Shown here: positions 3,781 through 26,608 of the stretch, piece after piece
How positions within the stretch are numbered: the first letter of the stretch is position 1
Layout of the letters: each line of letters opens with the position of its first letter
Origin: Gemmata obscuriglobus
GTDB lineage: Bacteria; Planctomycetota; Planctomycetia; Gemmatales; Gemmataceae
Assembly: GCF_008065095.1 (NCBI RefSeq)
Contig: NZ_CP042911.1
Span: forward strand, 8,040,001-8,072,000
DNA length: 32,000 nt
Direction of reading: 5' to 3'
The notes under the pieces: model-generated
What the model saw: the letters and a program-made list of their open reading frames with translations, nothing else
Told to the model about the DNA's origin: nothing
The model's database searches: none
Program-made: the position numbers and the translations under genes

Positions 3781-3808
3781 GCCGTTAGTGTAGCTGCAAA
3801 CGCGGCAT

Positions 3809-7294: not shown

Positions 7295-8186
7295 TTAGCG
7301 GTGGGTTGGGTTATGCGTTCGTTCGTACTCGTCTGGGGCAACGTAGTCCAGAGCGGAGTGCCGTCGGACCCGGTTGTAGAACGTCTCGATGTACTCGAAG
7401 ATGCTCGCCTTGGCCTGCTCGCGGGTGGCGTAGTCCTCGTGGTGAACGAACTCCTTCTTCAGGCTGGCGAAGAACGATTCCATCGGCGCGTTGTCCCAGC
7501 ACTGCCCGACCCCGCTCACGCTGCACACGATCCGCTCCTCTCGGAGCCGCCGCGGGTCATGTTCGCTCGCGTACGGGCTCCCGCGATCCGAATGCGCCAC
7601 CAGAGCTGAACGCGAAGACCCCTTGAGACGAGCGCCCAGAGCCATCTCCAGGGCATCCACCACCAACCGGCTGGTCGTCGTCCCGTCCATCGACCAACCG
7701 ATCACGCGGCGGCTGAACAGGTCTCCCACGGCCGCCAGGTACAGCCACCCCTCGCGGGTTGGGATGTACGTGATGCCCGCACACCCGCGGGCGTTCGGCT
7801 GGTCTGGGTCGAACGCCCGAGCCAACACGTTCGGGGCCACCGGGTGTGCGTGATTCGAGTCCGTGGTCTGGCGGAATTTCCGCTTGGTTCTTGCGGCGAT
7901 TCCGGCCTCACGCATGACTCGGGCCACGACGTTCACGCGGCACGCGTGCCCGCTCGCCACCAGTTCGGCGTGGATGCGTGGGCTGCCGTACCGGGCCTTC
8001 ACCTCTTCGGTCAACTCCTCGTGTCGAACCTCGGCGGCACGGGGCTCCCGCGACCGCCACGCGTACAATCCGGACCGCGACACCCCCAGCACCCGGCACA
8101 TCCGCACGATCGGCCACTCGGCCTTGCGTACCTCGATCCAGGCGAACGTCAGTTCGTCTGGATCGAGGGACGCCGACGCATTTTGA
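7295..8186 (-). CDS. IS3-family transposase OrfB (rve integrase core), expressed by -1 frameshift from orfA; possibly catalytically inactive
   Basis: The -1 frame reads ...NASASLDPDELTFAWIEVRKAEWPIVRMCRVLGVSRSGLYAW...ITYIPTREGWLYLAAVGDLFSRRVIGWSM...VAHSDRGSPYAS...CWDNAPMESFFASLKKE...FYNRVRRHSALDY. The second D (HSDRG) and the E (MESFF) of the DDE triad are present. The conserved W-x-x-D-ITY is replaced by G-C-A-G-ITY (see findings). The track ORF 7295..8314 includes a non-functional 5' overlap. Confidence 0.8.
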
Positions 8187-8442
8187 GGATGTCGCGCTCC
8201 ATCTCCAGCCGCTTCACCTCGGCCCGCAGCCGCCGGTTTTCGTCCTCGAGCGGTGTGAGATGGCCGGATCCGGGGAACGCACTCGGCCCGTCCTTGGCGA
8301 GCGCCTTCTTCCACGTGTGAAGCCGGTTCTCCGAGACGCCCAGCCGACGCGCGGCCTCCGCAACCGAGAGCTTCTGCTCCGTAACCACCTTCACCGCCGA
8401 GAGCTTGTACTCGGGCGCGTACGTCTTCCGCTTGCCAGCCAT
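8149..8442 (-). CDS. IS3-family transposase OrfA (HTH, leucine-zipper region)
   Basis: 97 aa, ATG at 8442, preceded by the strong SD AAGGGAGA. The sequence MAGKRKTYAPEYKLSAVKVV...LSVAEAARRLGVSENRLHTWKK...ENRRLRAEVKRLEMERDILK is typical of IS3/IS911 OrfA. Confidence 0.9.
   Translation of the reverse strand: MAGKRKTYAPEYKLSAVKVVTEQKLSVAEAARRLGVSENRLHTWKKALAKDGPSAFPGSGHLTPLEDENRRLRAEVKRLEMERDILKMRRRPSIQTN
8179..8187 (-). other. Putative programmed -1 ribosomal frameshift site of the IS3 element
   Basis: On the minus strand, CTC AAA ATG (..ERDILK|M) overlaps the orfB frame C AAA AT -> N-A-S. It lies where IS3 elements carry A AAA AAG, but only an A4 run remains here. Confidence 0.45.
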
Positions 8443-11500: not shown

Positions 11501-13380
11501 GCTCTCAGCACCGGCGCCGCGGGCGCCAGTACGAGCGTGCCGGCGGGCTCCTTCGCGCGGTAGGTGTAAACGGCCCGGGCGTCGGCGGGAGCATCGGTCG
11601 CGAGCCAACCCCACAGCCCCGCCGGCGTCGCTCCGGCATCGGGTCGAAGCTGTGGCACCCAGGCGGGTGCGACCGAAACGCTGAGCCACCCGTCGCGCTC
11701 GGTCGCGCCGGCCACGGCGAACGTCGGGAACGGCACCGGCGTGCCGGGCCGCGCTCCCGGACCGCGGAACTCGAACCGTAGCTCGGCTTGTTGGCCGGCG
11801 AGCAGCGGGCGCGCCAGTTCGATGACCTGGCCGTCCGCCCACGGGGGGCCGATGTGTGCGACGAGTTCGTCCGTCCCGGCTGCGCCGCGGTCGAGGGCGA
11901 ACCCCGGCGGCGGGCGCACGGTGAGTTGGAAAAGCGCCCCGCGGGTCGCCCGCACGCCCACCCGGGCGACGAGGAGCGATGCCGCCGGTCCCGGGAACCA
12001 CTCCAACCGCTCAAAGGTGTTGAACGCGCTCTCGGGGTTGGTCAGGCGGATCGACGGCATCCGGCGGAACGGGGCGTTGCTCCCGGGGGCCATCAGCGCG
12101 CCGCTGAGCGAAAGTACCCGCGACAGATCGGTCGCCGTAACCGCGTCCGTGAGGTGGTAGTCCCCCGGCGCCCACGACCCGATGTTCAGCCCGGGGGCCA
12201 CTCGCAGTTCAACGGACTCGCTCTCGGTGACGGCGCCGAGCGGGCGGACCGCGGGCAGCGGCGCGTCTGCGTGGCGGGCGGCGTCCGGGAGCGGCGCGAC
12301 CGCGGTGACGAGCACTTTCCCACCGGGGCCGGGCTGCCGCAGAGAGACCGTAACGCGGCGCGGGCCGCCGGGCGCCGCAGGCGGCCCGACGGACCACCCG
12401 GCGCCGTTGTTCGCGATCACCTCGGTGACGCGCAGACCCGGGTCCGCGAGGAGCGTCCACTCTCCCACCGACCCGCGCACCGGGCGCAGCTCGTACTCGA
12501 ACGCCGCGGTGAGTTGGTGCGGGCTCAGCTCGTACTTCGCGACCAGCGCCGCCGTGGCCCCCGCGGACGCCGCAGCCGTGGCGCGGACCGCGAACTCGAG
12601 CCGGGGCCGGCCGCCGAACTGAAACCGCCACCGCTTCCGGCCGGGCTTGCCCTCGGCGGCGAAAGGGCCGGTGAGGAGGGCGTCGGTGAGCGGCGCGGGC
12701 ACCTGGTCGTCCAGCAGTTCCAGATCCAGCGCCGCCGACGCGCACGTCGGCACCTTCAGGTCGAACCGTCGTTCACCGGGTTCCGCGGTGCCCGCGAGGG
12801 ACCACCGAAACTGGAGCGCCTGGCGCCCTTCACGGGTGACCCACACCGCCGGTGCCGCAGCCCCGGCCGGGACGGCGAGCACCGCGGCCCCGTCGGCGCC
12901 CCACCGCGGAGAGCGGACCGCCACGCGCAACGGGTCGAGCGACAGGAACGCGGCGCCGCCGGTCGCGTTCAGCACCCCGAGCGTCGCGGTGCCGACGAGA
13001 TCGCCGCCGTCGATTGCGGCCGTGTAGTTCGCTTCGACGATTCGCGGCGCGTGCTTCGCTCGCGCGACGGCCCGACCCGCGGCCCGCACCCGGGCTTCAA
13101 ATTCGCTGCGCGGCAGGCGGAGAACCGGCCCCGGTTCGAACTCTTTCAGCAACTCGGGAAGTTTGGCGGCCGGGGCGCGGACCCGGCGGATCGGGAACGG
13201 GTCGTCGGCCGGGGTCGCGTCGAGGGCGCCGCGCACGGCGGCACCGACGGGCGGGCGCGGCGCCGCCCCGAGGGCGGCACCGGCCGCGCACGCGAGCGCC
13301 AGAATCAGCCAGCCCGACCTGGACATCATACGCGCCACCGATCCGCTTACTCCCCGTCGGCGCCGCGCCGGCGGGCTCAT
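8590..13380 (-). CDS. Giant (1596 aa) membrane-anchored envelope protein of unknown family; two large ectodomains separated by a central cluster of ~4 TM helices
   Basis: An uninterrupted 4.8-kb GC3-rich frame. It has a signal-like N-terminus (MMSRSGWLILALACAAGAALGA; the alternative ATG at 13329 may be the true start). A central hydrophobic cluster lies at about nt 10215-10510 (AVAAVAAAVVVALGVVGAG / LVFGAVAAAALGAAEF / IAWPVLCAAPVGFARALVWAA / AAGILVGTLALGSFGLIA). The protein is Ala/Gly/Pro/Arg-rich and looks beta-rich. I could not assign any motif to a known family. It starts 21 nt downstream of the preceding gene's stop, giving operon geometry. Confidence 0.85.
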   Translation of the reverse strand: MSPPARRRRGVSGSVARMMSRSGWLILALACAAGAALGAAPRPPVGAAVRGALDATPADDPFPIRRVRAPAAKLPELLKEFEPGPVLRLPRSEFEARVRAAGRAVARAKHAPRIVEANYTAAIDGGDLVGTATLGVLNATGGAAFLSLDPLRVAVRSPRWGADGAAVLAVPAGAAAPAVWVTREGRQALQFRWSLAGTAEPGERRFDLKVPTCASAALDLELLDDQVPAPLTDALLTGPFAAEGKPGRKRWRFQFGGRPRLEFAVRATAAASAGATAALVAKYELSPHQLTAAFEYELRPVRGSVGEWTLLADPGLRVTEVIANNGAGWSVGPPAAPGGPRRVTVSLRQPGPGGKVLVTAVAPLPDAARHADAPLPAVRPLGAVTESESVELRVAPGLNIGSWAPGDYHLTDAVTATDLSRVLSLSGALMAPGSNAPFRRMPSIRLTNPESAFNTFERLEWFPGPAASLLVARVGVRATRGALFQLTVRPPPGFALDRGAAGTDELVAHIGPPWADGQVIELARPLLAGQQAELRFEFRGPGARPGTPVPFPTFAVAGATERDGWLSVSVAPAWVPQLRPDAGATPAGLWGWLATDAPADARAVYTYRAKEPAGTLVLAPAAPVLRADAVVSLGTADGRWLATTRVSLSAAGGALTEALVFVPGPPDDGRTWGLTGPAENAASAIPIPPALIEPPFLGTIDGLANLVGAPARVGAGGAGTFWLVRFARPVAGAAVLETVAPGPPLGTDDFVLGVPRLVGADQNTRVELAAALRGRATAELKGAELRVRPAPVAAGLQATGAYLLTAVRGPDEIVAAFGATVRDSGGGTLPVELPHRAEVRGVCVNGRWLSPAACAVRGGALSVPIPVGDAVRFEVRYRLPAEPGWPTRTVTSPVPLVPGDPPVRRWWSFADGVLPGWPARPDGAVADGPPLLGGPITSGPPALVIRSDDGWVRVGAVRTADAVAAVAAAVVVALGVVGAGRARGALVFGAVAAAALGAAEFGSPWWARIAWPVLCAAPVGFARALVWAAARRAVAAGILVGTLALGSFGLIAQPPVPVTVFIGTGAGGAEEVTAANALLERLDALAHPAPLPPVVTAVTYDVRADDTGAWVAARFVVHAFRPGDNVLTLPLGDARLERVTVNGAPAFATAPKPDTYAVPLGAAGRYEIDIRFAATVTASGAERELRFGTPDVPDTKLTAVLPGAARQPQSVGRLGRQTTATAGERTTIEADLGAVKHVHLRWREGVDGAAAIKVREACVWDVTDGGAELTAAYLVRVEQGTVPGLRVDVPAELEVLRVAVRAPDALGTAPALRDWQLEPEKGGVRPLQIDFQGASAGRFLVVLECAPRKPLTRQPVLRFPRVVFGSVKGETDPVYALRPTRVAVEEVGRTGVIDFSADALRDFVPVTDLKLDPNQLPRAFRPAPGAAAELRPVLRTGEAPRVLSSTAWAVGPTRADANGHLSWSSEAPVALFEFSVPAVQVLEVRGPDVSGWGRSGERVQVWLRAGAREGAFEWTGTLDPGGRPGAEWPFEPAVPAVPNGRLTSVDVRVRPAPGWTARPATGRGWSPARADELRYHAAGPPAPGLRVQLVPLPPGR

Positions 13381-13401: not shown

Positions 13402-16400
13402 CTATGCGCCGCTGCCTGTGGGGGCGGGTGTGCCGGCGCCCCCCGGGCGGCTCGGCGCCGACGGCGACGGCGGGATCGTCGCGCTGGCGGTCGGCGCCGG
13501 GAGCGTGCGCGTGAACCCGGGCAGGTACCGGACCCGGCGCCGCACCTCCCACCGCACCGCCGCTTGCACCGCGACCGCGGCCAACCCGAACACGAGCCCC
13601 GGTTGCGCCGCCGCAACCGCTTGGGCCGCCGGCTGCGGGTACAGCACCACCGCCACCGCGAACCCGCCTCCCAGCGCCGCAATCGTCAGCGCCGCGGCCA
13701 CCGGGTTGAGCCACGCCAGCAGCACCACGAGCAGGAACACCACCAGCGAGCACACGACCAGGACCGCGGTCCACGGGGCGCGGGCCACCCGCACCGGCTC
13801 GGGGCCGAGCTGTCGCGCCGCCAGCGGCTCGCCCTCTTGGAGCGGTGCCGGGGCGCCCGACAGGGGCTCGTCCCCGGACGTGAACCAGCGCTCCAGCTCG
13901 GCCCGCGGGGCGGCCGACGGCGCGAACACCGGCCCGCGCCACCGCCACCGTAGCTCCGGGCGGGTCCGCCCCCCGAGCAGCAGCGGGGCCGAACCCGACG
14001 GCTCGGTGATCAGCCAGCGGACCGGACCGGAGTACGCCGCGGCCGTCACCCGCGGCGGGACGTAGAGCGTTTCCCCGACCGCCTGGCGCGTTCCGGGTAG
14101 CGCGTACTGCACCTCCAGAACCGCGGCGCGCCCGGCCGGCAGTTCGGGCCGGGATACGCGGAACAGCCGCCCGCCGTTCGCCTCACCGGCCGGCTGTAAC
14201 GGGGCGGTCAACCCGTCCAGACGGGCCGTCGGGTTGGGACCGGTTTCGTTCGGCAGCCACACCTCGACCGCCGGGGCGAGCCACCGGACGAGCCGGAACC
14301 GCGCGCGGTAGCTGACGCTCCCGTCCTCGGTGGCCCCCGCTTCGACCAACGCGCGATCGATCCACACGGCGGCGGCCGATTCCGGCGGCGCGGGGTGCAA
14401 CTCCACCGCGAACGGGTGCTCCGCGGACGCGCCGAGTGTGAGGGCAGGGAGCGTGTCGCGCTCGGGAATCACTTCAGGGGGCAGTTCGCGCCACCTCGGG
14501 GCGGCGGCGCTCACCGTTCGCCCCGTCATCGAGTTGACCCACACGCGAACCGTCGCCTCGGTGCGCGCCGCCTCGGCCGGCCAAAACAGCCCCACCGGCA
14601 CCGCCACCGGCCCGTCGGTACGTTCGGGCAGCGGGAGCGCGAAACTGATCCGTACGGTGTGATCGGCCGTGTCGGCGATCGGAACGAACGACCACACGCC
14701 GGGTGAAAGGGCGTCGAGGGCGGGAACGGTCTTCAGCCCCAGCGCGTCGGCGGGGCCGCGGAGCCGCACCGGGCGCGAGAACCCGTCAACCGCGCGCAAC
14801 CGGAGGGTTTGAGACACCACCAACTGGCGCTCGCCCACGGTCACGTCGGCGCGCACCTCTGCGGTCACATCTGGGCGGGGCTGGCGCCAGCTCAGCGCGA
14901 CCCCGGCGGCCCCGAGTTCCGCCCGACCGGTTACGGAAACGGGCACCTTTGGCGGCGTGCCGTCTGTCCCGGGCACGGCCCCCAGCGCCGCGCCGGCCGC
15001 CGCGATGTGATCACCTTCGCGGTCGCGCCAGGAGCCACGCAGCTCCAACCCGTCGGGTACGACTGCGGTGACGGTCGTGTCCCGCTCCAGGGCCTTTGGG
15101 AACCGCGGCAGCGGGACGGTCGTTGCGCTGCTACCCGCCGGCACCTCCACGGCGCCGACCAGCACCACGCTGAACGGCTGTTTGGTGGGGCGGGCGAGGC
15201 GCACCGTGACCGGGAGCCACGCGCCATCCCCCTTCCCCTGCCCGACGCCCTGCACGGCCTCGGGATCGAACTCGGACTCCAGCCCCCGCCACTCGGCCGG
15301 CACCTCGACGGTGAGGGCGTCGAGTTCCGTGCGGATCGGCCTGACGTTGATTTCGGCCCGCACGCGCCAGCTCGCACCGCTCTCGGCGAGATCGAGGCGG
15401 TACACCGGCCGCACCCGCACCGCGCCCTCGACGGGAAGCGCTTCGACGGTCAGCAGCGGAACGTCCACCGGAGCCGAACCCGTCGGGCCGGTGGTGAGCT
15501 TGAACTGTGCGACGCTGAGCTCCTCGTCCGCGCCCCCCCCGGCCGGGTCCGCACGCCGGAGGTCCGGCCCGTGTCGGAATATGAACCGGTGGTGCGGTCC
15601 GGTCTTCACGGTCACCGTCCCGGTCTGCCGCAGCACGTCGAGTGCCCCGAACGGGCCGACCGGGACCGGCTCCGACATCGTTCCGGCCTTCGGCCGCGAC
15701 TGGCGCACCACGGCGGTGACCAGCCAGTCGGCACCGGTCGAGTCGGCGGGCAGTGCGATCCTCCAAACGGGCTTGCCCGGCTCGCCCGGTCGGATGACGA
15801 CGGGCAGTTGAGCGGGACCGGTCTCCCCGGCCGCCGCGACCCGCTCCACGCTCACATCGGCGGCCGGCGGCGCGACGAGCTTTAGCTCGCGCCCGGGGCC
15901 GCGCACCTTGAACTTCGCCGTCGATTCGGCGAACCCGTCGGTTAACACGACGCCCACGTCGAGGTCGGCGCTCGACACCTGATCCGCGGGCTGCGCGGCC
16001 GCCGCGGGCGGGTCCCAGACCACCTCCAGCGATTCCACCGGGCCGAGCGGGAAGCCGCCCCCGGCGTCGTTCGGGGCCAGTTGCTTCGCGTCCACGGGGA
16101 AGCGCCGCGGTTCGGTCAGCTTGGGCGGGTCCGGCGTTTTGGTGATGAGGGCGAGGCGCTTGACGTCACCCGGCATTTCGACGGCGAGCTTCGTGACCGG
16201 CGCACGCGGGAGCCCGAACTCGAACCCGATCTCCGCCTTCGTGCCGCGCGCCGTGACCGGGGCCTCGAGGTCGAGAACGAGGGCGTGGGCTCCGGCGGAC
16301 TCGACTAGCACCGCGAGCCCGTCGTCGGCGGTTTCGAGTACCGGCTGCTTGGCCCCGTCGAGCGCCGCGCCGGTGGCGAACGCGCGGCGCCCGCCCAGCG

Positions 16401-16911
16401 CGACCGCCGCGTTGGGCTGGGCGGTGCGGAACGTGTACGTGAGCTTCAGTGCGGCGACGAGCTGGTCGCCGCGCTTCTCGAGGCGGCCGCCGATGACGCA
16501 CTCGTGCGGCGCAACCGGTTTGCGAGCAGCGAGTTCCTTTCTCAGGGCCTCGGCCCGCTCGGACAACTTTTGAAAGTCCTGCGGGCTGAGCGTCACACCG
16601 TCCGCCACCCCGAGCAGGAGGAACGTCCCGTCCGGGAGTTTCACCGCGAGCGACTTGGCGTCGGCCTTATCGCCCTTGGCTTCGGGCAACTTCTTGGACG
16701 GTTCCCCGACGGGCGGTTGAGCAGATAGGGCGGCCGAAGCGATTATCAGGGTGGCGAGAGCGACAAAGCCTGTTCTGCGGCTGGACGCGGGAGGGGAGAA
16801 CGCCACTCTCCCGCGCGCATTCGAGTCGCAGGCGGGTTCCGCAACGCGGCTCACACCCCGTTTAAGAAACGGGGGGCCGTGAGGGATAAGGTTCTCCGCG
16901 TGTGCGGGCAT
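13402..16911 (-). CDS. Giant (~1169 aa) membrane-anchored envelope protein of unknown family, paralogous to the N-terminal two-thirds of the 8590..13380 product
   Basis: The track ORF starts at a TTG (16962). I prefer the first ATG at 16911 (MPAHAENL...). It has a signal/anchor segment (TGFVALATLIIASAALSAQPP), a ~980-aa ectodomain, then a ~3-TM cluster at about nt 13550-13785 (WTAVLVVCSLVVFLLVVLLAWL / VAAALTIAALGGGFAVAVVLY / GLVFGLAAVAVQAAV). The tail is Pro/Ser/Thr-rich (LPAPTASATIPPSPSAPSRPGGAGTPAPTGSGA). Confidence 0.85.
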   Translation of the reverse strand: MPAHAENLIPHGPPFLKRGVSRVAEPACDSNARGRVAFSPPASSRRTGFVALATLIIASAALSAQPPVGEPSKKLPEAKGDKADAKSLAVKLPDGTFLLLGVADGVTLSPQDFQKLSERAEALRKELAARKPVAPHECVIGGRLEKRGDQLVAALKLTYTFRTAQPNAAVALGGRRAFATGAALDGAKQPVLETADDGLAVLVESAGAHALVLDLEAPVTARGTKAEIGFEFGLPRAPVTKLAVEMPGDVKRLALITKTPDPPKLTEPRRFPVDAKQLAPNDAGGGFPLGPVESLEVVWDPPAAAAQPADQVSSADLDVGVVLTDGFAESTAKFKVRGPGRELKLVAPPAADVSVERVAAAGETGPAQLPVVIRPGEPGKPVWRIALPADSTGADWLVTAVVRQSRPKAGTMSEPVPVGPFGALDVLRQTGTVTVKTGPHHRFIFRHGPDLRRADPAGGGADEELSVAQFKLTTGPTGSAPVDVPLLTVEALPVEGAVRVRPVYRLDLAESGASWRVRAEINVRPIRTELDALTVEVPAEWRGLESEFDPEAVQGVGQGKGDGAWLPVTVRLARPTKQPFSVVLVGAVEVPAGSSATTVPLPRFPKALERDTTVTAVVPDGLELRGSWRDREGDHIAAAGAALGAVPGTDGTPPKVPVSVTGRAELGAAGVALSWRQPRPDVTAEVRADVTVGERQLVVSQTLRLRAVDGFSRPVRLRGPADALGLKTVPALDALSPGVWSFVPIADTADHTVRISFALPLPERTDGPVAVPVGLFWPAEAARTEATVRVWVNSMTGRTVSAAAPRWRELPPEVIPERDTLPALTLGASAEHPFAVELHPAPPESAAAVWIDRALVEAGATEDGSVSYRARFRLVRWLAPAVEVWLPNETGPNPTARLDGLTAPLQPAGEANGGRLFRVSRPELPAGRAAVLEVQYALPGTRQAVGETLYVPPRVTAAAYSGPVRWLITEPSGSAPLLLGGRTRPELRWRWRGPVFAPSAAPRAELERWFTSGDEPLSGAPAPLQEGEPLAARQLGPEPVRVARAPWTAVLVVCSLVVFLLVVLLAWLNPVAAALTIAALGGGFAVAVVLYPQPAAQAVAAAQPGLVFGLAAVAVQAAVRWEVRRRVRYLPGFTRTLPAPTASATIPPSPSAPSRPGGAGTPAPTGSGA

Positions 16912-16984
16912 GGGTCGTTCCCGTTGGCGACGGCTCCGCCATCTCCAACTCAGTATACCCAAACCCCGCAGTCGATTTGCCCCA

Positions 16985-18463
16985 TCAAACGGGAATCGGT
17001 TCCCCGAATCCCCCGGTCGACCTGCGCAGGTCGTGCGCGCGGCCTTCTCGGCACCCCAGGACGGCGCACAGGGCGGCGGCGAGCAGCACGAACGCGCCAG
17101 TGTGGGTGCCGTACACCAGCGCGAGGTCCGCGCCCCGACCGCCGAGCAGCCCAGGCCCGGCCATCAGTACGAACGAAGCGCCCAGTGCCCCGATTACGAA
17201 GATGCGCACGCGGCGGGAGATGTTCGCCACCGCAACCGCCCAGGCGAGGGCCGCCAGCGGGAGCAGCAGTACGACCGCGTGGTGCTTCCAGGTCCGCTCG
17301 CTGAAGAGGAGCATCCCGACGCAGATGAGCCCGCACTCGGCGGCGACGCGCCAGCCGTGGCGCGGGTCGGTCGGGCCGCGCACCGGCGCCCGGCACAGCA
17401 CCACCACCGCGAGCGCGAACAGGGCCGTGAGCGCCTTCACCACGACCCACGCGGCGGGCCGCCCGATGTCCGTAAGGTTGTGGTACTCGGCGGGCGTGGG
17501 GATGTCGCCTTCCGGCGTCTTCAGGTACGTAATGTAGGACGGGCTGTTGGTGAACAGCCGGTACACGAACCCTGTGACCGCCTGGTTCGGGTGCTCGGTC
17601 GTGATCTCTCCCTTGAGCAGCGGGCGCTCGACCATGAGCGCGTACCAGTCCCCCATCAGCTCGCGGTTGCGGTCGAAGCCGAACACCGCGCCCGGCACCA
17701 CCACGAGCCACAGCACCAGACCGGCGAGCGAGGCGGCGAGCGCCCGCCAGCACCGCTTCCACGCGAAGTACGCGACGAACAGCGCGGGGGTCACCTTGCA
17801 GGCGATCGCGAGCGCGAGGGTGAGCCCGGCGAGCGTGTCGAGGCGGCGGCGGAACGCTTCCAGCGTGGCCGCGACCAGGAACAGGATGAAGATGTTGACG
17901 TTGTTGTGCGACAGGTCGCCGAGCAGGGCCGGTAGGCACACGACGATCGCCGCGGCTTTCGCCAAATCGAGGCGGGCGGAGCGCGTGAGCCCACCCGCAT
18001 CACGTTCGCGGCCCGCCTGCGGCGGCGCGGGCTCGCCGGGCTGTTCCCCGCTCGCCCGGCACAGCCGGAACGCCCACACCACGGCCAGCGCCGCGAGCAG
18101 CGCTTTCGCGTAGAACCAGCCCAGCGCCCCGGCCGCCGGCGGCAGTGCCGCGAACGGCCGCAGCAGCACCGCCATGATCGGCGGGTTCGGGTACTCGTTG
18201 CGGCCGACGTAGATGTTCTCCCCGGCGAATACCCCGTTCACCATCTCGCGCCACCGCAGGAACGCCGACCGGGTCTGCTGTCCGGTGTCACCCGGCTTGG
18301 CGATCTTGGCCGCGTACTTCACGCTCATCAGCACGACCACGACAGCCAGCAGCCCGACGAACCCGGCCCGCACCCGGGCGGGATTCGTTGCGTGAGCGGT
18401 GCGGAGCCATCCGGCGAACCGCGAGAACGACAACAGACGCACGCTCCACCCCCTCCCGGCCAC
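16985..18463 (-). CDS. Polytopic membrane glycosyltransferase, GT87 / DUF2029-like (polyprenol-phosphate-sugar dependent GT-C type)
   Basis: 492 aa with a GTG start at 18463. There are more than 10 hydrophobic segments. Motifs I associate with DUF2029/GT87 (PimE-like) proteins are present: early-loop YPNPPIMAVLLRPF, DLSHNNVNIFILFLV, and LAIACKVTPALFVAYF. The family call is from memory and needs an HMM search. It is the first gene of the minus-strand operon. Confidence 0.7.
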   Translation of the reverse strand: MAGRGWSVRLLSFSRFAGWLRTAHATNPARVRAGFVGLLAVVVVLMSVKYAAKIAKPGDTGQQTRSAFLRWREMVNGVFAGENIYVGRNEYPNPPIMAVLLRPFAALPPAAGALGWFYAKALLAALAVVWAFRLCRASGEQPGEPAPPQAGRERDAGGLTRSARLDLAKAAAIVVCLPALLGDLSHNNVNIFILFLVAATLEAFRRRLDTLAGLTLALAIACKVTPALFVAYFAWKRCWRALAASLAGLVLWLVVVPGAVFGFDRNRELMGDWYALMVERPLLKGEITTEHPNQAVTGFVYRLFTNSPSYITYLKTPEGDIPTPAEYHNLTDIGRPAAWVVVKALTALFALAVVVLCRAPVRGPTDPRHGWRVAAECGLICVGMLLFSERTWKHHAVVLLLPLAALAWAVAVANISRRVRIFVIGALGASFVLMAGPGLLGGRGADLALVYGTHTGAFVLLAAALCAVLGCREGRAHDLRRSTGGFGEPIPV

Positions 18464-18610
18464 AAGGAAGCGGGATCATCGCGCAGACCGACCGTCGTGG
18501 TCAACCCGAAGCTCGTGCCACCCGTGGCGCGGCGGCGCGGTCTTGACCTTGCTCGGTTCGTCGGGTTGCTGCTAGGCTCCCGCCCGGAACTGCGGCAAGG
18601 ACCTGAACTC
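18464..18610. promoter_or_regulatory. Divergent promoter region between the GT87-like operon (-) and the 18611 membrane-protein gene (+)
   Basis: A 147-bp gap lies between two divergently oriented start codons. There is a weak sigma70-like candidate, TTGCTC-N18-TAGGCT, on the plus strand around 18550-18580. The call is inferred from gene geometry only. Confidence 0.4.
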
Positions 18611-20539
18611 ATGAACGATACGCCGACCGGCGGATTCCGCGAGCAGCCCGCGTGGCTGGTGGCCGCGGCGGTGGTTGTGGTGGCACAAACCGGGCTGGCG
18701 CTGGGGCTGTTCGGCCCCGGCCGCCCGTGGGCCGCGGTGACCGACGACCGCCCGATTGTGTCGGGGCGGCACCCGCTGCACCTGTACCACGGGACGCTCG
18801 GCGCCGCGGCGTTCCGCGACCACCGGAACGCCACCTGTTACGACCCGGCGTTTCAGGCCGGGTACCCCAAAACCCCGGTCTTCGACGGCGGCAGCCGGCC
18901 GGCGGAGCTGTTCGCACTGGTGGGCGGCCCCGGGTACCGCCCGGCGGCGTACAAGGTGGGCGTGCTCGTCTTCCTGATGCTAATCCCCGGGGCCTTCATC
19001 GCGGCGGCCCGCGGGGCGGGGCTGCCCGCCGGCCCCGCGGTGCTGACCGGGTGCTTCGGGGTGCTGCTCGCGTGGTGCCCGGCGGTCCGGGCGATGCTCG
19101 AGGAGGGGCAACTCGACCTGCTCGGCGCCGGGCTGGCGGCGGCGGTGTTCGTGCCGTGGCTCGGCCGGTACGCGCGATACCCGGGGCCGGAGCCGTGCCT
19201 GGTGCTCGCGGGGCTGGCGCTGGCGGGCTGGTACGCGCACCCGCTGGTGTGGGTCGGGCTGCTCCCGGTGATGTTCGTGTTCTACCTCGTGTTCGCGCCG
19301 CAGCACGGCCCGGGGTGGCACCTCGGGCTCGCCGGGATCGTTTCGTTCGGCGTCGTGCCCAACACGTGGTGGCTTGTCGACTGGGGCAAATACTGGTGGC
19401 TCCGGCAGCCGTCGTCGAGCGACCACATCCCGTTGCCGTCGTGGGAGGCGGTGCTGGGCGCCCCGGCCGACTATGCGGCCCTGTGCGGGGGCCTGCCCGG
19501 CGGCGCGGTGGTGCCGCTGGTCGCGTTCGGCGGGCTGGTGCTGCTGTGGGCCGGCGGGCACCGGGCCGCGGCGTGGTTGTCCCTGCTGACCGCGGTGCTG
19601 GCGGTGTGCGCCGCGCGGCTGGCGGCGACGTGGCCGCGGGTCCCCCCGGAGGTGCCTGCGCGGGTGGCCCCGTTCGCGCTGGCGCTGCTCGCCCCGGCGG
19701 CGGCGTTCGGCGTGTGGGAGGTGATGCGGCGGGCGCGGGCGGCTGGTGCGGGCGTGGCGCTCTGCGCGGCGGCGCTGTTCCTGGTGGGCTGGGCCGACGG
19801 GCCGGGCGCGCCGTTAGCGAACCTGATGGGCGTGCGCACGCAACCGTTCCTGTTGGGACTCACGCCCGAGCAGCAGCGGCTCGTGGGCGCGCTCCGCGAG
19901 CACACCACGCCCGCGGCCCGCGTCTTGTGGGAGGAGGCGGGCGAGCGGCCGGGCGGGAACTGGTCCGTGCTGCTGCCGCTGTACACCGGCCGGGCGTTCC
20001 TAGGGGGGCTGGACACCGACTCGGAGATCGACCACGGGTACTGCGGGCTCCGGAACCAGTGCCTGAGCGGGCGCCCGCTCGCCGAGTGGACCGACAAGGA
20101 GCTGTCCGAGTTCTGCCGCTGGTACAACGTGGGCTGGGTGGTGTGCCGCACCGCGGGCACCGCGGAGCGGTGGGAGCGGTGCGCCGAGGTGAACGAGCGG
20201 GGCGAGAAGAAGCCGCTCGCGAGGGCCGTCACGCGGTTCACCGAGAACGGCCAGCCCGTGGTGCTGTTCGCGCTCGACCGCCCGCTCACGTTCGTGCTCG
20301 ACGGGCGCGCCGTACTGGAATCGGCGGACGCGAAGCGAATTGTGCTGACCAACGTCGAGCCGAACGCACTCGGCTACGTCGACCTGAGCTTCCACGATTT
20401 CGGTGGGCTGCACGCGTACCCGAGCTACGTGAAGCCCCTCAAGTGTTCCAACCCGGTGACGCGGGACCCGGTGGACCACATCCGGCTCTCCGTGCCCGGC
20501 CCGGTGCCCCGCATCGTGCTCGTGTGGGAGCACCCGTAA
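18611..20539 (+). CDS. Polytopic membrane protein (~11 TM) with a ~200-aa C-terminal soluble domain; possible GT-C-fold glycosyltransferase (speculative)
   Basis: The start is set at ATG 18611 (MNDTPTGGFREQPAWLVAAAVVVVAQ...). The track start at 18392 would overlap the divergent gene. It has many hydrophobic helices and a first loop carrying acidic and His residues (AVTDDRPIVSGRHPLHLYHG...YDPAFQAGYPKTPVFDGG). The C-terminal domain is globular (…DKELSEFCRWYNVGWVVCRT…RIVLTNVEPNALGYVDLSFH…). I recognised no defined family. Confidence 0.8.
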   Translation: MNDTPTGGFREQPAWLVAAAVVVVAQTGLALGLFGPGRPWAAVTDDRPIVSGRHPLHLYHGTLGAAAFRDHRNATCYDPAFQAGYPKTPVFDGGSRPAELFALVGGPGYRPAAYKVGVLVFLMLIPGAFIAAARGAGLPAGPAVLTGCFGVLLAWCPAVRAMLEEGQLDLLGAGLAAAVFVPWLGRYARYPGPEPCLVLAGLALAGWYAHPLVWVGLLPVMFVFYLVFAPQHGPGWHLGLAGIVSFGVVPNTWWLVDWGKYWWLRQPSSSDHIPLPSWEAVLGAPADYAALCGGLPGGAVVPLVAFGGLVLLWAGGHRAAAWLSLLTAVLAVCAARLAATWPRVPPEVPARVAPFALALLAPAAAFGVWEVMRRARAAGAGVALCAAALFLVGWADGPGAPLANLMGVRTQPFLLGLTPEQQRLVGALREHTTPAARVLWEEAGERPGGNWSVLLPLYTGRAFLGGLDTDSEIDHGYCGLRNQCLSGRPLAEWTDKELSEFCRWYNVGWVVCRTAGTAERWERCAEVNERGEKKPLARAVTRFTENGQPVVLFALDRPLTFVLDGRAVLESADAKRIVLTNVEPNALGYVDLSFHDFGGLHAYPSYVKPLKCSNPVTRDPVDHIRLSVPGPVPRIVLVWEHP

Positions 20540-20751
20540 GCACCGGGACTTGGGGCCACGTCCTTTGGCGGGCCGGGGGGATCTCGGCAACCCTCCGCCC
20601 GCACACTTTCCGGCCAGTTTGTCTCAAGCGCTATTGACCGGCTGCGGCGCGCGGGTATGCCCACGTCCCAAGCAGAAACACTGTTCGCGAGGGCCGGTCC
20701 GGTTCCGGGGGGAATCGGGCCGTTCGGCGCGCCACTGTCTAGGACGGACGC

Positions 20752-22758
20752 ATGAACCGGGCGTGGGAACTCGCAGCGGGGATCAGCCGGCGCCACTTCC
20801 TCGCGTGGTCCGCCGCGGTCGGGGCGGCCGGGCTGGCCGGGTGCAAGAGCACCGAAGCCGCCAAGCTCCAGACCCCGCGGTCGCAGATCGGGGAGGACCC
20901 GGCGGACCCGGAGACGGTCCCGACCGTCGGTTCCAAGACCTCGGTGGGCAACACCGAGGCGCTGACGGTGAGCGGGGTCGGGCTGGTGTACAACCTGCCC
21001 GGCACCGGCAGCAGCCCGGCCGCGGGCAGCTGGCGCACGATGCTCGAGGACAGCCTGAAGAAGCTCAAGCGGGACCAGACGCTCAACCTGCGCGAGCTGC
21101 TCGACGGGCCGGGCCGCACCACCTCGCTGGTTATCGTGTCGGCGCAGATCCCGCCGGGGGCGCGGGAGGGCGACCCGATCGACGTGCAGGTCACCCTGCC
21201 CGACGACAGCAAGACCACCAGCCTGCGGGGCGGCGAGCTGTTCGCCACCGAGCTGATCACGTTCGACACCACCGGCAACATCCGGGCGCAGGTGCGCGGC
21301 CCCGCGGCGCGGGGCGGCAACCAGCTCGTCGCCGGGAGCGTGTGGGCGCGGGCGCAGGGCCCGCTCGTGGCCGGCAACATCGTCCTGGACGGGGCGGACG
21401 GTAAGGAGGCCAAGCCCGACACCGACGCCGAGGGCCGCGCGCTGTACCGGGCCGGGTTCATCGCCGGCGGGGCCAAGGTCGCGCACACCCGCCCGTACTA
21501 CCTGTTGCTGAACTCGGGCGACCAGAACCCGCGCGTCGGGGCCGCCATCGCCGAGCGGATCAACACCACCTTCCACACCACTTCGGACCCGCGGTTCAAG
21601 GTCGCCGACGCGAAGGACCGCGAGCTGATCCTGCTGAGCGTGCCGGCCGCGTACCGGCACAACCACTACCGGTTCCTGCTGGTCGCCCGGCAGGTGCCGT
21701 ACAACCCGGTCGGCGCGAACAGCGTGTACCGCCAGAAGCTCGAAGAGGAGCTGATGGACCCGGCCACCGCGCTCACCGCGGCGGTGAAGCTCGAGGCGCT
21801 CGGCGGGGACTGCCGCCGGAGCCTCAAGATCGGCCTGGAGAGCGCGTCGCCGTGGGTCCGGTTCGCGGCCGCCGAGGCGCTCGCGTACCTGGGGCAGACG
21901 GACGGCGCCGCCGAACTCGCCCGGCTCGCCGAGGACCACCCGGCCCTCCGCGCCCAGAGCCTCAAGGCGCTCGCGTCGCTGGACGACGCCGCCGGCACCG
22001 ACAAGCTGGTGGAGATGCTGACCAGCGGCGACGCCGAACTCCGCCACGGGGCGTTCATCGCCCTGCGGCTCGCCGACGAGCGGCACCCGGCGCTGGGCGG
22101 GGCGCTCATGAACCGCTCGTACTACCTGCACCGGGTCGGCGGCCGCGGGGCGTCGGCGGTCCACCTCACCGCCGCGGGGCGCAGCGAGATCCTGGTGTTC
22201 GGCGACAACGTGAAGCTCCGCGGGCCGATGCCACCGGTGCCGCTGGGCAGCGAGTTCACGGTGTCGGTGCCGGCCGGCGACGAGGGCGCGAAGGTCACCC
22301 GGGTGGTGCGCCTCAAGGACCGCGACCCCGAGGTGAAGGAGGCGCGCTGCGGCGCCGACCTGAGCGCGGTGCTCGGCGCGCTGGCGAACCTGGGCGGCGG
22401 GTACTCGGAGGCCGTCGAACTGGTCCGCCGGTCCGCCCGGGCGGAGGCGCTCTCGGCCCCCGTGGTGATGGACGCGGTGCCGCGCGAGATGAGCATCCAG
22501 CAGCTCGCCGGTTTCGCCAAGGTGGACACGACCCTGGCGAAAGCGAACGTGGAGGTCGCGAAGGTGGGTACGGTGCAGCCCGCCGTGGACGCCAACGGGT
22601 TCGAGGTGCCGGTGGACCAGGGGCCGCTGGTCGCCCCGGCCGGGGCGGCGCTGCCGAAACAGGCGCTGAACCGCAACCCGGGGCGCCTGTTCGGGCCGAG
22701 CCGGGCGTCCGACGCCCCCATCCTCGACCCGGCCGTGGTCCCGGCCGGGGGGCGGTAG
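20752..22758 (+). CDS. FlgI (flagellar P-ring)-like protein with Tat signal, lipobox, an inserted HEAT-repeat module and a C-terminal extension
   Basis: ATG at 20752 with AGGA 9 nt upstream. The Tat motif is SRRHFLA and the lipobox is LAGC. FlgI-like blocks compared with E. coli FlgI from memory: [16 protein letters not shown] ~ [61 protein letters not shown] ~ [56 protein letters not shown] ~ [46 protein letters not shown] ~ [33 protein letters not shown]. HEAT/PBS-lyase-like repeats lie at about nt 21720-22100 ([30 protein letters not shown]). Confidence 0.8.
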   Translation: [668 protein letters not shown]

Positions 22759-22796
22759 AAGTTAACCGTGTAAAGGCAGAAGGCAAACGTTGAAAA

Positions 22797-22835
22797 CGGC
22801 CCGGCGGACATTCCGTCCGCCGCGGCCGGCTTTTA
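22797..22835 (+). terminator. Putative rho-independent terminator after the FlgI-like gene
   Basis: The GC stem GGCCCGGCGGAC / GTCCGCCGCGGCC has one bulge and a short loop, and is followed by GGCTTTTAA (T-run at 22831-22834). It lies 40 nt after the stop. Confidence 0.5.
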
Positions 22836-22912
22836 ACCTGCACTCACGCTCGAGCCTTCAGAAGTTAGCGGGCTCCGACTTCGCGCTTCCGATTTTCGAC
22901 TGTTGACTTCCC

Positions 22913-25900
22913 ATGTTGAAGCGCCTCGAACTCGTCGGGTTCAAGTCCTTTGCCGACAAAACGCGGTTCGACTTCGCGCCCGGGGTGACCGGGGTGGTCG
23001 GGCCGAACGGGTCCGGCAAAAGCAACGTCGTCGACGCGGTGCGGTGGATCCTGGGCGAGCAGTCCCCGAAGAGCCTGCGCGGCGGCGAAATGGCCGACGT
23101 GATCTTCAACGGCTCCAGCTCGCGCAAGAGCCTGGGCATGGCGGAGGTGACGGTCGCGTTCGACAACGCCCGGCGGCTGCTGGCGGTCGACGCCGACGAG
23201 GTGCAGCTCACCCGCCGGGTGTACCGCGACGGCACCGGCGAGTACCTCATCAACGGCCAGATGTCCCGGCTGAAGGACCTCAAGAACATCTTCCTGGGTA
23301 GCGGCGCCGGGGCCGGCGGGTACACGATCATCGCCCAGGGGCGCGTCGACGAGATGCTCCAGGCGTCGACGAAGGACCGGCGCGCGATCTTCGACGAGGC
23401 CGCCGGGATCAGCCGGTTCAAAGCCGACAAAAACGAAACGCTCCGCAAGCTCGCGTCCGTCGAGCTGAACCTGACGCGCTCGAAGGACAAGCTCGACGCG
23501 CTCGACGGCCAGCTCCGCACGCTGCGCCTCCAGGCCACGAAGGCCCAGAAGTACAAGGAGCACTCGGACCGGTTGCGGGAGCTGCGCGTCGGGCTGGGGG
23601 CGCGCGAGTACCGCGAGCTCACCGCGGCGCTGGCGACCGAGCAGGGCGCCCTCGCCGCGCTGAAGGCGGAGGTGAGCGGCGCCACGTCGGAGGCCGAGCA
23701 GCTCGAACACCAGGCCGCGCAGCTCGACTGGCAGGTGACCCGGGGCGAGGAGGCGCTGCGGCACCACGAGGCCCGGCTGGCCGAGGCGCGGCAGCAGCTC
23801 GCGGGGTTCGAGGCGTCGCTCAAGCACGACCGCGCCGCGGCGCAGAACTTGGGCGCCGAGCTGCTGAAGGTCGGGCGCCAGCGGGCCGATCTGGGCTACC
23901 GCCTGAAGGGGCTGGAGGCGGATTCGGTCCGCGCCGCCGCGGAGAGCGCCGCGGCCGAAGGGCGGCTCACCGACGAGCGGGGCCGCGCGGACGAGGTGAG
24001 CGACGCGCTGGCGGCGGTCGTGGCGCGCCTCGCGGACCTGGAGCGGGCGCAGGCCGAGGACCTTCAGCAGCACATGGAGCTGGTGCGCCAGGCGGCGTCC
24101 GGCCGGTCCACCGCCGACGCCACGCTCGCGCAAGTGAACCGGCTCCAGAGCGAGTACACGCGGCGGCTGGCGGCCCGCGAGCACCGCGCCGCGCACCGGG
24201 CCACGCTCACCCACGCGCTCGACGGCCTGTCGCAAGAGGACGCCGACGTGCAGGCCCGGCTCGCCGCGGCCCGCGAGCAGCTCGACGACCTGACCGCGGC
24301 ACGCGACACCCTCACCGAGCAACTCGGTGAGGGGCAGGCGCGGCTCGAGGGGCTGCGCGTCGAGCAGGGCGCGCTCCGCGCCCGCATGGAGGTGCTCGAA
24401 GACCTCGAGCGGTCGCTCGAGGGGTTCGGCACGGGGGTCGCGGCGGTGTGGCGCCGGCTCGAAGCGGAGGCCGCGGACGATTACACCCCGACCGAGTTGA
24501 GCGCCGCGGTGGTCGGGCTGGTTGCGGACCTGCTCACGGTGCCGCGCGAGGTGGCCCCGCTGGTCGAGTTGGCCCTGGGAGATGCCGCCCAGCGGTTCGT
24601 CGTTCGGTCGCCGGAGGCGGTGGACGCGGTGGCCGCCGCGGTGGGCGAACTGACCGGGCGGGTCGGGTTCGTGCCGCTGAGCTTTTCCGCCACGCACGCC
24701 GGCTCGGCCGACGCGAGCGGCGAACACGGCGGCGCAGGCGGGGGGCCTTCCCTTGCGGCGCTTGTGACCTGCGACCGACCGCACTGCGCCGGGCTGCCCG
24801 CGCAGCTCCTCGGCCGCGTCCTGATGGCGGACACGCTCGCGGACGCGCGGTGGCTGGTCGCGCTGCACCCCGGCCACCGGGTGGTCACCCGCAGCGGCGA
24901 GCTGCTCGAGCCGGACGGCACCCTCACGGTCGGCCCGCTGCGGGGCGAGGCCGGGCTGGTGTCGCGCAAGAGCGAGCTGCGCGAGCTGCGCGAGCAGTTC
25001 CGTGCCACGTCGGAACTCGTCGCGGGGGCGGAAGTCGAACTCGCGGACCTCCGGCGCCGGGCCGAAGCCGCCGAGGGCACCATTGAGGCCGTCGAGGCCG
25101 AGATCGCGCTCCTCTCGGACGAGGCCGGCGGCCTGCTCCAGCGGATCGCGCGGCAGCGCCAGCAGGTCGAGCACCTGGACGCGGACATCGAGCTGATCGA
25201 GGCCGACTGCCGGACCCTCGAACAGCAGGTGCAAGAGGGCGAGGCGGCGTGGAGCGCCGCCCGGCTCGCGGCGGAGGACGCCGAGCGCGCCGCGGCGGAG
25301 CTGGAGTCCCGGCTCGCGGAGGTGAAGCGCGCGCTCGCGGCCGGCGCCGCCGACCGCACCGCCCGCGAGCAGGCCCACACCGCCGCACAGGTGGCCCTGT
25401 CCCGCGCCGCCGCGGACCGGGACCGCGCCCGGGAGCGCGCCGCCCAGCTCGAAGCCGACATCCGCAAGCGCAAGATCGAGGCCCTGGATCTGGCCGCCGC
25501 GGACCGCAACGCCCGCGGGCGGCTCGCGGACTGCACGCTCGCGGCCCTCCGCGCGAGTGCGGGCCAGGCCGACGCGTACGGCGAGAAGGAGTCGCGCGAG
25601 CGGCTCGCGGCGGAGCTGTCGGCGAAAGGCGCCGCGGACCGGGCGGACCGCGACCGGGTACGCGCCCGGCTCCAGCAGCTCCGCCACGGGTGGCAGGAAA
25701 AGCAGGCCGCCGCGCACGCCCGCGAACTCGCCGCCCACGACCTCGGCGCCCGGCTCGCCGCGCTCGGCCAGCGGATCCGCGAGGACTACGGGATCGAACT
25801 GGCCGAACTGGCGGGCGGCGCGCTCCGGCCCGCCGAGGGCTCCAGCGCGGACATTTCGGGCACCGAAGACGCTCGTGCCGACACGACCAGTTCGGAACGC

Positions 25901-26608
25901 ATCGAGCCGCCGCTCGTGGGCGTCAACGTGCTCGAAGCCCAGGCCGAAATCGAAGACCTGAAGCGCAAGCTGGCCCGGCTCGGCAGCGTCAACATGGAGG
26001 CGCTCGAGGAGCTTACCCGGGTCGAGGGCGAGTTCAACGCGCTCCAGGCGCAGCACAGCGATTTGAACGCCGCCCGGCAGTCGCTCCAGCAGATCATCGA
26101 CGCCATCAACGGCGACAGCCGCAAGCTGTTCCTGGACACCCTCAACGCGGTCCGCGGGTACTTCCAGGAGCTGTTCCGCAAACTGTTCGGCGGCGGGCAG
26201 GCGGACATCGTGCTGGAGGACGAGGCCGACGTGCTGGAGTCGGGGATCGAGATCACCGCCCGCCCGCCCGGTAAAGAGCTGCGATCACTGTCGCTGCTCT
26301 CGGGCGGCGAGAAGACGCTGACCGCGGTCGCCCTCCTGCTCGCGATCTTTCGCAACAAACCGTCGCCGTTCTGCATCCTCGACGAGGTGGACGCGGCGCT
26401 GGACGAGGCGAACACGGCGCGGCTCGCGGGGGTGCTGCGCGAGTTCCTGGACCGCAGCCAGTTCATTGTCATCACCCACAAGAAGCGGACGATGGCCGCC
26501 GCCGACCGGCTGTGGGGGGTTACCATGCAGGAGAGCGGCATCAGCCGGCTGCTGCCCATGCGGTTCGAGGACTGGAACGACGAGGGCGGTGAGGCGCAAG
26601 CCGCCTGA
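22913..26608 (+). CDS. smc: Chromosome segregation protein SMC
   Basis: 1231 aa. The N-terminus is MLKRLELVGFKSFADKT with Walker A GPNGSGKSN. Long coiled-coil arms and a hinge region are present. The ABC signature is LSGGEKTLTAVALLLAIF and Walker B is FCILDEVDAALDEAN. Confidence 0.97.
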   Translation: MLKRLELVGFKSFADKTRFDFAPGVTGVVGPNGSGKSNVVDAVRWILGEQSPKSLRGGEMADVIFNGSSSRKSLGMAEVTVAFDNARRLLAVDADEVQLTRRVYRDGTGEYLINGQMSRLKDLKNIFLGSGAGAGGYTIIAQGRVDEMLQASTKDRRAIFDEAAGISRFKADKNETLRKLASVELNLTRSKDKLDALDGQLRTLRLQATKAQKYKEHSDRLRELRVGLGAREYRELTAALATEQGALAALKAEVSGATSEAEQLEHQAAQLDWQVTRGEEALRHHEARLAEARQQLAGFEASLKHDRAAAQNLGAELLKVGRQRADLGYRLKGLEADSVRAAAESAAAEGRLTDERGRADEVSDALAAVVARLADLERAQAEDLQQHMELVRQAASGRSTADATLAQVNRLQSEYTRRLAAREHRAAHRATLTHALDGLSQEDADVQARLAAAREQLDDLTAARDTLTEQLGEGQARLEGLRVEQGALRARMEVLEDLERSLEGFGTGVAAVWRRLEAEAADDYTPTELSAAVVGLVADLLTVPREVAPLVELALGDAAQRFVVRSPEAVDAVAAAVGELTGRVGFVPLSFSATHAGSADASGEHGGAGGGPSLAALVTCDRPHCAGLPAQLLGRVLMADTLADARWLVALHPGHRVVTRSGELLEPDGTLTVGPLRGEAGLVSRKSELRELREQFRATSELVAGAEVELADLRRRAEAAEGTIEAVEAEIALLSDEAGGLLQRIARQRQQVEHLDADIELIEADCRTLEQQVQEGEAAWSAARLAAEDAERAAAELESRLAEVKRALAAGAADRTAREQAHTAAQVALSRAAADRDRARERAAQLEADIRKRKIEALDLAAADRNARGRLADCTLAALRASAGQADAYGEKESRERLAAELSAKGAADRADRDRVRARLQQLRHGWQEKQAAAHARELAAHDLGARLAALGQRIREDYGIELAELAGGALRPAEGSSADISGTEDARADTTSSERIEPPLVGVNVLEAQAEIEDLKRKLARLGSVNMEALEELTRVEGEFNALQAQHSDLNAARQSLQQIIDAINGDSRKLFLDTLNAVRGYFQELFRKLFGGGQADIVLEDEADVLESGIEITARPPGKELRSLSLLSGGEKTLTAVALLLAIFRNKPSPFCILDEVDAALDEANTARLAGVLREFLDRSQFIVITHKKRTMAAADRLWGVTMQESGISRLLPMRFEDWNDEGGEAQAA

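Follow-up and report, generated by a model that had tools for sequence, protein, structure and literature searches.

A predicted lipoprotein with a FlgI fold and a HEAT-repeat insert, encoded beside smc in Gemmata obscuriglobus: a member of a probably non-flagellar family of Planctomycetia

The gene at positions 20752-22758 (+ strand) of a 32,000-nucleotide stretch of Gemmata obscuriglobus DNA (assembly GCF_008065095.1, contig NZ_CP042911.1, positions 8,040,001 to 8,072,000; hereafter the window) encodes a 668-aa protein that keeps the whole, though very divergent, fold of the flagellar P-ring protein FlgI. The fold is interrupted by a module of HEAT repeats, and the protein is predicted to be a lipoprotein precursor. 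It belongs to a large family, found only in the class Planctomycetia (Gemmatales, Pirellulales and Planctomycetales) within the searches made, whose members are in our judgement probably non-flagellar paralogs of FlgI that have been mis-annotated as FlgI. To our knowledge, FlgI has no described role except that of a bushing in the flagellar motor, and a non-flagellar FlgI paralog has not been described either. The literature on planctomycete P and L rings or on a FlgI-HEAT architecture yielded only a passing remark (Cavalier-Smith 2006), and no non-flagellar FlgI paralog.

Architecture of the encoded protein

The open reading frame (ORF) starts at the first ATG after an in-frame stop codon that lies 9 nt 5' of it, and its GC content at third codon positions is 0.97, in a window of about 70% GC. 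An earlier annotation, made from the letters and an ORF list (the sequence-only reading), had placed the gene at exactly the coordinates confirmed here. The parts of the gene and its product are as follows.

20752..22758, +, coding sequence of the 668-aa FlgI-HEAT lipoprotein (from the ORF list; stop codon included)
20785..20805, +, twin-arginine motif S12-R-R-H-F-L-A18 (Pfam TAT_signal)
20833..20844, +, lipobox L28-A-G-C31, Cys31 being predicted to carry the lipid and to start the mature protein
20929..21711, +, FlgI-like N-terminal part, aa 60-320 (Pfam FlgI, phmmer, hhalign, Foldseek)
21712..22086, +, HEAT-repeat module, aa 321-445 (Pfam HEAT_2; structure matches to alphaRep and phycobilisome (PBS)-lyase-type HEAT proteins)
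22087..22491, +, FlgI-like C-terminal part, aa 446-580, a beta sandwich and a helix pair (hhalign, AlphaFold2, Foldseek)
22492..22755, +, C-terminal tail, aa 581-668, Gemmatales-type and largely disordered (model confidence, profile coverage)

The similarity to FlgI, which the sequence-only reading had traced in blocks along the whole protein and had staked on a search with the Pfam model PF02119 (FlgI), is significant: the model matches aa 68-312 with E=1.3e-18 and 67.5 bits (cutoff 25.3), although the match covers only HMM positions 11-220 of 343. The signature blocks GxGLVxGLxGTG and IDVxV...SLRGGxLxxTxL are both present. The N-terminal part is also aligned by phmmer to Salmonella FlgI (7bgl_a). 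For the C-terminal part, a single-sequence phmmer search of the PDB returned no FlgI, and the relationship is detected there only by profile-profile and structural comparison.

In the profile-profile test, sub-alignments of the family were compared by hhalign with an alignment of the E. coli FlgI with nine others from diverse proteobacteria. The N-terminal part (aa 48-320) corresponds to canonical FlgI columns 30-261 (E=3e-24), and the C-terminal part taken alone (aa 446-600) to the colinear remainder, columns 257-377 (E=8.6e-5). The full-length protein aligns with columns 13-377 (Prob 99.5, E=3.4e-23). Without the HEAT module the alignment of the two joined parts becomes better (E=1.6e-26, 326 columns), and the HEAT part itself gave no match to canonical FlgI in the same test (E=0.31); the point of insertion falls after about residue 250 of E. 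coli FlgI. The C-part match includes the C-terminal helix pair, with its pattern L..V..L..LG....L, and the terminal block reads sL..lV.aLNalG..p.dli.IL in FlgI and [23 protein letters not shown] in the 668-aa protein.

The structural comparison gave the same picture. The AlphaFold2 model of the protein, built on 42 homologs, has a predicted local distance difference test score (pLDDT) of 73 and comprises four zones, namely a beta-rich zone (aa 63-300), a helical solenoid (aa 325-441), and a second beta zone (aa 450-533) followed by two helices, between disordered ends (aa 1-47 and aa 606-668). When the whole model was submitted to Foldseek, the top four PDB matches were FlgI chains of solved L- and P-ring (LP-ring) structures (E=3.6e-11), with alphaRep HEAT proteins next. 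When the C domain was modelled by itself (pLDDT 89.7), the closest structure in the PDB was FlgI 8z5n_4 (prob 0.99, with a weak E=0.016), and Salmonella FlgI was matched with a Foldseek probability of 0.80. Because the C-terminal part matches the colinear remainder of FlgI and the C-domain model matches FlgI as well, the anatomy proposed by the sequence-only reading is correct: the HEAT module is an insertion inside a FlgI fold, as judged by AlphaFold2, Foldseek and hhalign alike. Over its full extent the fold is thus that of FlgI (PF02119; LP-ring structures 7BGL and 7CBL from Salmonella), and like FlgI the protein is predicted to be exported to the periplasm. The NCBIfam FlgI ortholog models NF003676 and NF009430 are not reached, the scores of 57.1 and 31.3 bits lying far below the respective cutoffs of 300 and 557.

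The HEAT insert comprises 125 aa in about five repeats. It is recognized by Pfam HEAT_2 at aa 361-439 (E=7e-10, 39.4 bits, cutoff 27.7) and is modelled as a helical block at aa 325-441 (about nt 21720-22080; pLDDT about 90), which agrees with the module of about 130 aa, of the HEAT or PBS-lyase type, that had been read from the sequence between the FlgI-like segments. The insert superposes on structures of alphaRep and of CpcE/CpcF, the PBS-lyase-type proteins described by the HEAT_2 and HEAT_PBS models. Unlike in those proteins, the repeats form a short module inside another fold and are predicted to be periplasmic, and nothing suggests a lyase activity. No other region of the protein is as conserved as the insert, whose median identity to distant members is 41% (33% for the FlgI-like N-terminal and 25% for the C-terminal part) and in which conservation reaches 90% or more in 25 of the 125 columns.

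Beyond the FlgI match, residues 581-668 form the extension of about 90 aa that had been noted after the FlgI-like end. The pLDDT is below 50 at residues 606-668. The tail carries the motif L639[12 protein letters not shown]651 (nt 22666-22704), which is near-invariant, in the form LNRxPGRLFG(P)KR, among Gemmatales-type members, and is duplicated in P0096, P0111 and the Fimbriiglobus ruber protein P0122. Most of the distant representatives align to the family profile only up to about position 575, so that the tail is a feature of the Gemmatales type only.

The N-terminus ([32 protein letters not shown]) combines a twin-arginine (Tat) motif, SRRHFLA, with the lipobox L28-A-G-C31, which follows the hydrophobic stretch [11 protein letters not shown]. 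The lipobox, which the earlier reading had given as LAGC, is well supported by the family: G30 and C31 are invariant in the family alignments A1 and A3 (down to 29% identity), a strict lipobox occurs in at least 320 of the 376 full-length members, and most of the listed misses still have the G-C pair. The claim of Tat export holds in part. The motif is present and passes the Pfam TAT_signal model (25.4 bits, cutoff 22.7), but it falls below the cutoff of the stricter model TIGR01409 (14.3 bits against 16.7), and an RRxFL-type motif occurs in only 161 of the 376 full-length members. Since the lipobox is near-universal and the Tat motif is not, the lipid anchor appears to be a trait of the family and Tat export to vary among clades, a Tat-type signal being predicted for the Gemmata clade. 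The residue following the lipobox Cys is never Asp in 320 members, which under the sorting rules of E. coli suggests the outer membrane.

In its signal sequence the protein departs from canonical FlgI, which has a Sec signal of the signal-peptidase-I type and is not lipidated. Canonical FlgI forms a ring of about 26 subunits around the distal rod, serves motility only and is dispensable for growth. FlgH (of the L ring) and FlgP (of the basal disk or H ring) offer a functional analogy, as N-terminally lipidated proteins that form periplasmic rings under the outer membrane; they bear no relationship to the family in sequence or fold, however, and both are flagellar and dispensable for growth.

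Distribution of the family and linkage to smc

A profile search of 1.84 billion representative sequences, clustered at 50% identity (E<=1e-30), retrieved at least 514 family clusters. Nearly all of them are about 580-680 aa long and cover profile positions 20-575, that is, the N-terminal FlgI part, the HEAT module and the C-terminal FlgI part. As the architecture recurs in so many clusters, a chance fusion or an assembly artefact was rejected. The closest homolog, from Gemmata sp. JC717, is 97% identical, and Gemmata, Frigoriglobus and many metagenome-assembled genomes (MAGs) encode proteins of about 665 aa with the same pair of Pfam domains.

A scan of one genome per species found a relative in at least 597 genomes, which belong to Gemmatales, Pirellulales (Thermoguttaceae, Lacipirellulaceae, Pirellulaceae, Botrimarina), MAGs labelled Planctomycetales, and Kolteria; membership of Pirellulales was confirmed among the clusters of the profile search. 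The peptide pattern used in the genome scan (..RYGAF..) misses Gemmata-type sequences with RQGAF or RHGAF, so that nothing can be concluded from Isosphaeraceae being missing among the 80 loci kept. Two MAGs labelled 'uncultured Alcaligenaceae bacterium' (L012, CAZESP010000007.1; L025, CAZFDX010000206.1) also carry the FlgI-HEAT-smc pair, their proteins being 35-39% identical to that of the window; these are probably mislabelled or contaminated bins.

The annotation of orthologs in the databases is inconsistent. Some are named 'flagellar basal body P-ring protein FlgI' and others, such as that of Limnoglobus roseus, 'HEAT repeat domain-containing protein' (compared were P0399 from L. roseus and P0321 from a Fimbriiglobus sp. 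MAG with P0001, P0008, P0025 and P0122), and the precomputed Pfam annotation drops the FlgI match in some members, e.g., P0356 and P0358.

As the earlier reading had it, the gene lies between an uncharacterised membrane-protein locus and smc, and the ORF and Pfam annotation bears this out: upstream is a gene for a 715-aa membrane protein that has no Pfam match, and downstream is smc. The features on the downstream side are as follows.

22797..22834, +, 13-bp GC-rich hairpin followed by UUUU, in the 154-nt spacer before smc (from the fold of 22759-22912)
22913..26608, +, smc, the conserved downstream partner (Pfam SMC_N and SMC_hinge)

The linkage to smc extends to the family. Among the 74 family loci with enough sequence, smc starts no more than 1.5 kb downstream on the same strand in 64, and in four others only C-terminal smc matches were found, at a spacing consistent with adjacency (64-68 of 74 in total). 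The gap between the stop codon and the smc start has a median of 145 bp over 71 loci. The pair (illustrated by loci L001-L004 and L095-L099) occurs also in Frigoriglobus, in a distant Gemmataceae-like MAG, in a Pirellulales MAG and next to an 855-aa outlier of the family, with all other neighbours differing. The presence of the family in three orders, together with its conserved position beside smc, points to an origin before those orders diverged. In the F. ruber locus (L098), a 297-aa ORF that has no Pfam match is called between the FlgI-HEAT gene and smc (12023-12916).

In about 14 loci, from both Gemmatales and Pirellulales, dnaJ, rnpA and yidD lie upstream, in the order dnaJ-x-rnpA-yidD-[FlgI-HEAT]-smc on one strand, where x is a small ORF. 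Examples are L003 (7286-9297) and L099 (7968-9836), as well as L006, L013, L026, L032, L043 and L046; in a closed genome of 5.2 Mb the genes of the block follow one another closely on the same strand, the gap to smc being 44 bp. In many bacteria the gene after rnpA-yidD is yidC, and in this block the FlgI-HEAT gene occupies the place usual for yidC.

Flagellar genes are not part of this neighbourhood. A tblastn search with 14 E. coli flg-operon proteins (FlgA-N) against 89 loci (1.06 Mb) matched only the family gene itself, flagellar Pfam domains were absent from the nine annotated loci, and the 32-kb window contains no flagellar genes. The linkage thus differs from that of flgI, which is associated with flgA, flgH, flgG and flgJ. 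Synteny is a weak criterion in planctomycetes because their flagellar operons are scattered; even so, the canonical flgI of Planctopirus limnophila (see below) still sits with rod genes and flgK. The 715-aa membrane protein was considered as a second conserved partner and rejected, as tblastn found no match to it in the other family loci.

The 154-nt spacer (22759-22912) is predicted to fold with -60.1 kcal/mol (z=-3.15), and the hairpin within it could be a weak terminator or attenuator; a promoter and terminator consensus scan of 20400-23000 made no calls, including at the hairpin.

Flagellar and non-flagellar interpretations

Genetic evidence is available from P. limnophila, for which the supplements of a transposon-directed insertion-site sequencing study (PMC10632474) list two genes named 'flagellar P-ring protein', Plim_2706 and Plim_1168. 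The former and E. coli flgI are each other's best BLAST match, with a coverage of at least 70% in both directions; Plim_2706 has the rod genes Plim_2702/2703 and flgK (Plim_2709) as neighbours and is non-essential (PMC10632474). The latter adjoins the SMC gene Plim_1167 and was called essential, with an insertion index of 0.0102, compared to 0.0086 for DnaA and 0.12-0.15 for the neighbours of Plim_1168 (PMC10632474). Matches to Plim_1168 by BLAST were found in 31 of 45 Planctomycetes, in no other genome of the Planctomycetes-Verrucomicrobia-Chlamydiae group and in 0 of 4655 prokaryotes, and flhA, flhB, fliG, fliM, fliN and fliP are all non-essential (PMC10632474). The main text of that study mentions neither flagella nor Plim_1168; the data stand in the supplementary tables only.

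Plim_1168 is the probable ortholog of the family, with which it shares the annotation, the adjacency to SMC and a restriction to planctomycetes that matches the family distribution. In the published data this probable ortholog is called essential for growth and the listed flagellar genes, canonical flgI included, are dispensable. A second line of evidence comes from Fimbriiglobus ruber, a species reported to lack flagella and to have swarm cells that are non-motile (PMC7397252, Table 1). It carries an intact copy of 662 aa (WP_161967997.1), with smc downstream, and this copy falls within a large clade of intact relatives.

The sequence-only reading had offered two explanations. According to the first, which PGAP and IMG also assume, the protein is the planctomycete FlgI ortholog and forms the P ring itself in a highly derived state, with a lipid anchor that replaces or supplements FlgH, so that anchor and ring are merged in one protein. 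The Pfam FlgI match above the gathering threshold and the name given in the databases are in keeping with this view, as is the mention of 'P-ring genes' in the first planctomycete genome, made in passing by Cavalier-Smith (2006). P. limnophila, however, possesses a separate, reciprocal-best and non-essential flgI of canonical length in a flagellar cluster, while its smc-adjacent gene is called essential; the architecture therefore appears not to be the sole motor FlgI of flagellated planctomycetes, a possibility that the same reading had raised against its own suggestion of a repurposed gene. The NCBIfam FlgI cutoffs are missed by a factor of at least 5, a lipobox stands in place of the signal-peptidase-I type signal, flagellar synteny is lacking, and the gene is kept in the non-flagellated F. 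ruber. We consider this explanation highly improbable.

A more elaborate flagellar role is unlikely, though less so. The protein might be an accessory periplasmic ring of the planctomycete motor, lying around the P ring or extending it in the manner of FlgP, FlgT or PflA in Vibrio and Campylobacter, with the essentiality in P. limnophila due to a polar effect on smc. The homology to FlgI is beyond doubt, complex flagellar motors often add rings of lipoproteins and repeat proteins, and most Planctomycetia are flagellated at some stage. The gene also precedes an essential gene, a kanamycin (Km) cassette is all that the transposon carries, and FlhA is present in 38 of the 45 planctomycete genomes compared to 31 of 45 for Plim_1168 (PMC10632474). 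Against an accessory ring, the non-flagellated F. ruber and a large related clade keep an intact copy, no flagellar neighbour occurs in 89 loci, and the gene is embedded in the dnaJ-rnpA-yidD-smc housekeeping block. In addition, Salmonella FlgI residues K63 and K95, which we take to face the rod and to matter for ring assembly around it, correspond to R122 and K154, neither of which is conserved in distant members; this variability argues only weakly against rod binding.

The same variability would fit a third alternative, in which the protein is a non-flagellar periplasmic lipoprotein that forms no ring, its FlgI domains being only a scaffold that presents the HEAT module, and the latter would work in monomeric form as an adaptor or chaperone, envelope biogenesis being one possible setting. 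In agreement with such an adaptor, conservation is stronger in the HEAT insert than in the FlgI parts, and sequence similarity to FlgI is clear over only some 110 residues at the start. The FlgI fold is nevertheless kept in both halves across the family, in at least 514 clusters, which suggests a constraint on a fold whose only activity known to us is ring assembly. A ringless adaptor thus seems doubtful to us.

The second explanation of the sequence-only reading, a FlgI fold recruited to a non-flagellar role in the envelope, fits all of the evidence and corresponds to the non-flagellar paralogy that we favour. A mechanism can be proposed on this basis. After export and lipidation, Cys31 would tether the protein to a membrane facing the periplasm; the FlgI domains would oligomerise side by side in the fashion of the P ring; and the HEAT modules would form a crown that binds a partner. 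As a ring or scaffold in the periplasm, the assembly would serve an essential envelope process unrelated to flagella, and it would be expressed together with SMC or next to it. In its boldest form, which we put forward as a speculation with a small chance of being right, the membrane-tethered ring would be the core of an essential envelope machine specific to Planctomycetia. Candidates would be the FtsZ-independent budding or division apparatus at the bud neck, or a ring of the crateriform structures, and the ancient pairing with smc would reflect co-expression of segregation with envelope remodelling.

Several considerations weigh against non-flagellar paralogy or its mechanistic extension. 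The assignment of Plim_1168 to the family was made from annotation, SMC adjacency and phyletic pattern rather than from its sequence. Plim_1168 is probably upstream of the essential smc, and mini-Tn5 insertions could therefore kill through polarity, a point that the published study does not address (PMC10632474). The absence of flagella in F. ruber is a phenotype and not a statement on gene content, and the evidence for a separate canonical flgI comes from a single species, P. limnophila. The terminator-like hairpin between the gene and smc means that co-transcription in the window is not assured. Finally, ring formation, location at the membrane, a partner that binds the HEAT module and the kind of envelope structure concerned are what we infer.

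That the gene stands in the databases as FlgI is already known, and the essentiality call for its probable ortholog is recorded, unremarked, in a supplementary table. New in combination are a distinct paralog of FlgI, a conserved HEAT insert, a near-universal lipid anchor and linkage to smc in most sampled genomes of three orders, in a protein that is probably non-flagellar. Non-flagellar paralogy would imply that the P-ring fold, equipped with a lipid anchor and a conserved HEAT crown, was put to a second use, one that is probably essential for growth. The host lineage has an envelope biology that is unexplained, including division without FtsZ, budding and crateriform structures, and the family provides a named and tractable candidate among the essential genes specific to planctomycetes. 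In addition, hundreds of entries would be mis-named "flagellar basal body P-ring protein FlgI", which distorts the counts of flagellar genes and the predictions of motility for planctomycete genomes and MAGs. If the envelope-machine proposal were true, this would be the first flagellar bushing protein exapted into a housekeeping organelle of the cell envelope.

Other genes of the window

The gene of the 715-aa polytopic membrane protein (18392-20539, + strand) is divergent to that of a GT87-family glycosyltransferase (16985-18463, - strand). As called, the two ORFs share about 70 nt where their 5' ends meet, and one of the starts is therefore probably mis-set. Two adjacent giant ORFs of 1596 and 1186 aa (8590-13380 and 13402-16962, both on the - strand), which have no Pfam match, are rich in Ala, Gly, Pro and Val, begin with signal-like N-termini and lie in the stretch of highest GC content in the window (75-77%).

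A transposase with HTH_21 and rve integrase-core domains (7295-8314, - strand), of the type found in insertion sequences, lies in a stretch of lower GC content (63.5%) and is probably part of an insertion sequence. Unrelated to the FlgI-HEAT gene are three genes at 409-1251, 3277-3963 and 6209-7024 (all on the - strand), for an Ada-like fusion of an AraC-type helix-turn-helix domain with an O6-methylguanine methyltransferase, a MafB19-like/CMP-type deaminase and a phospholipase D (PLD)-like protein.

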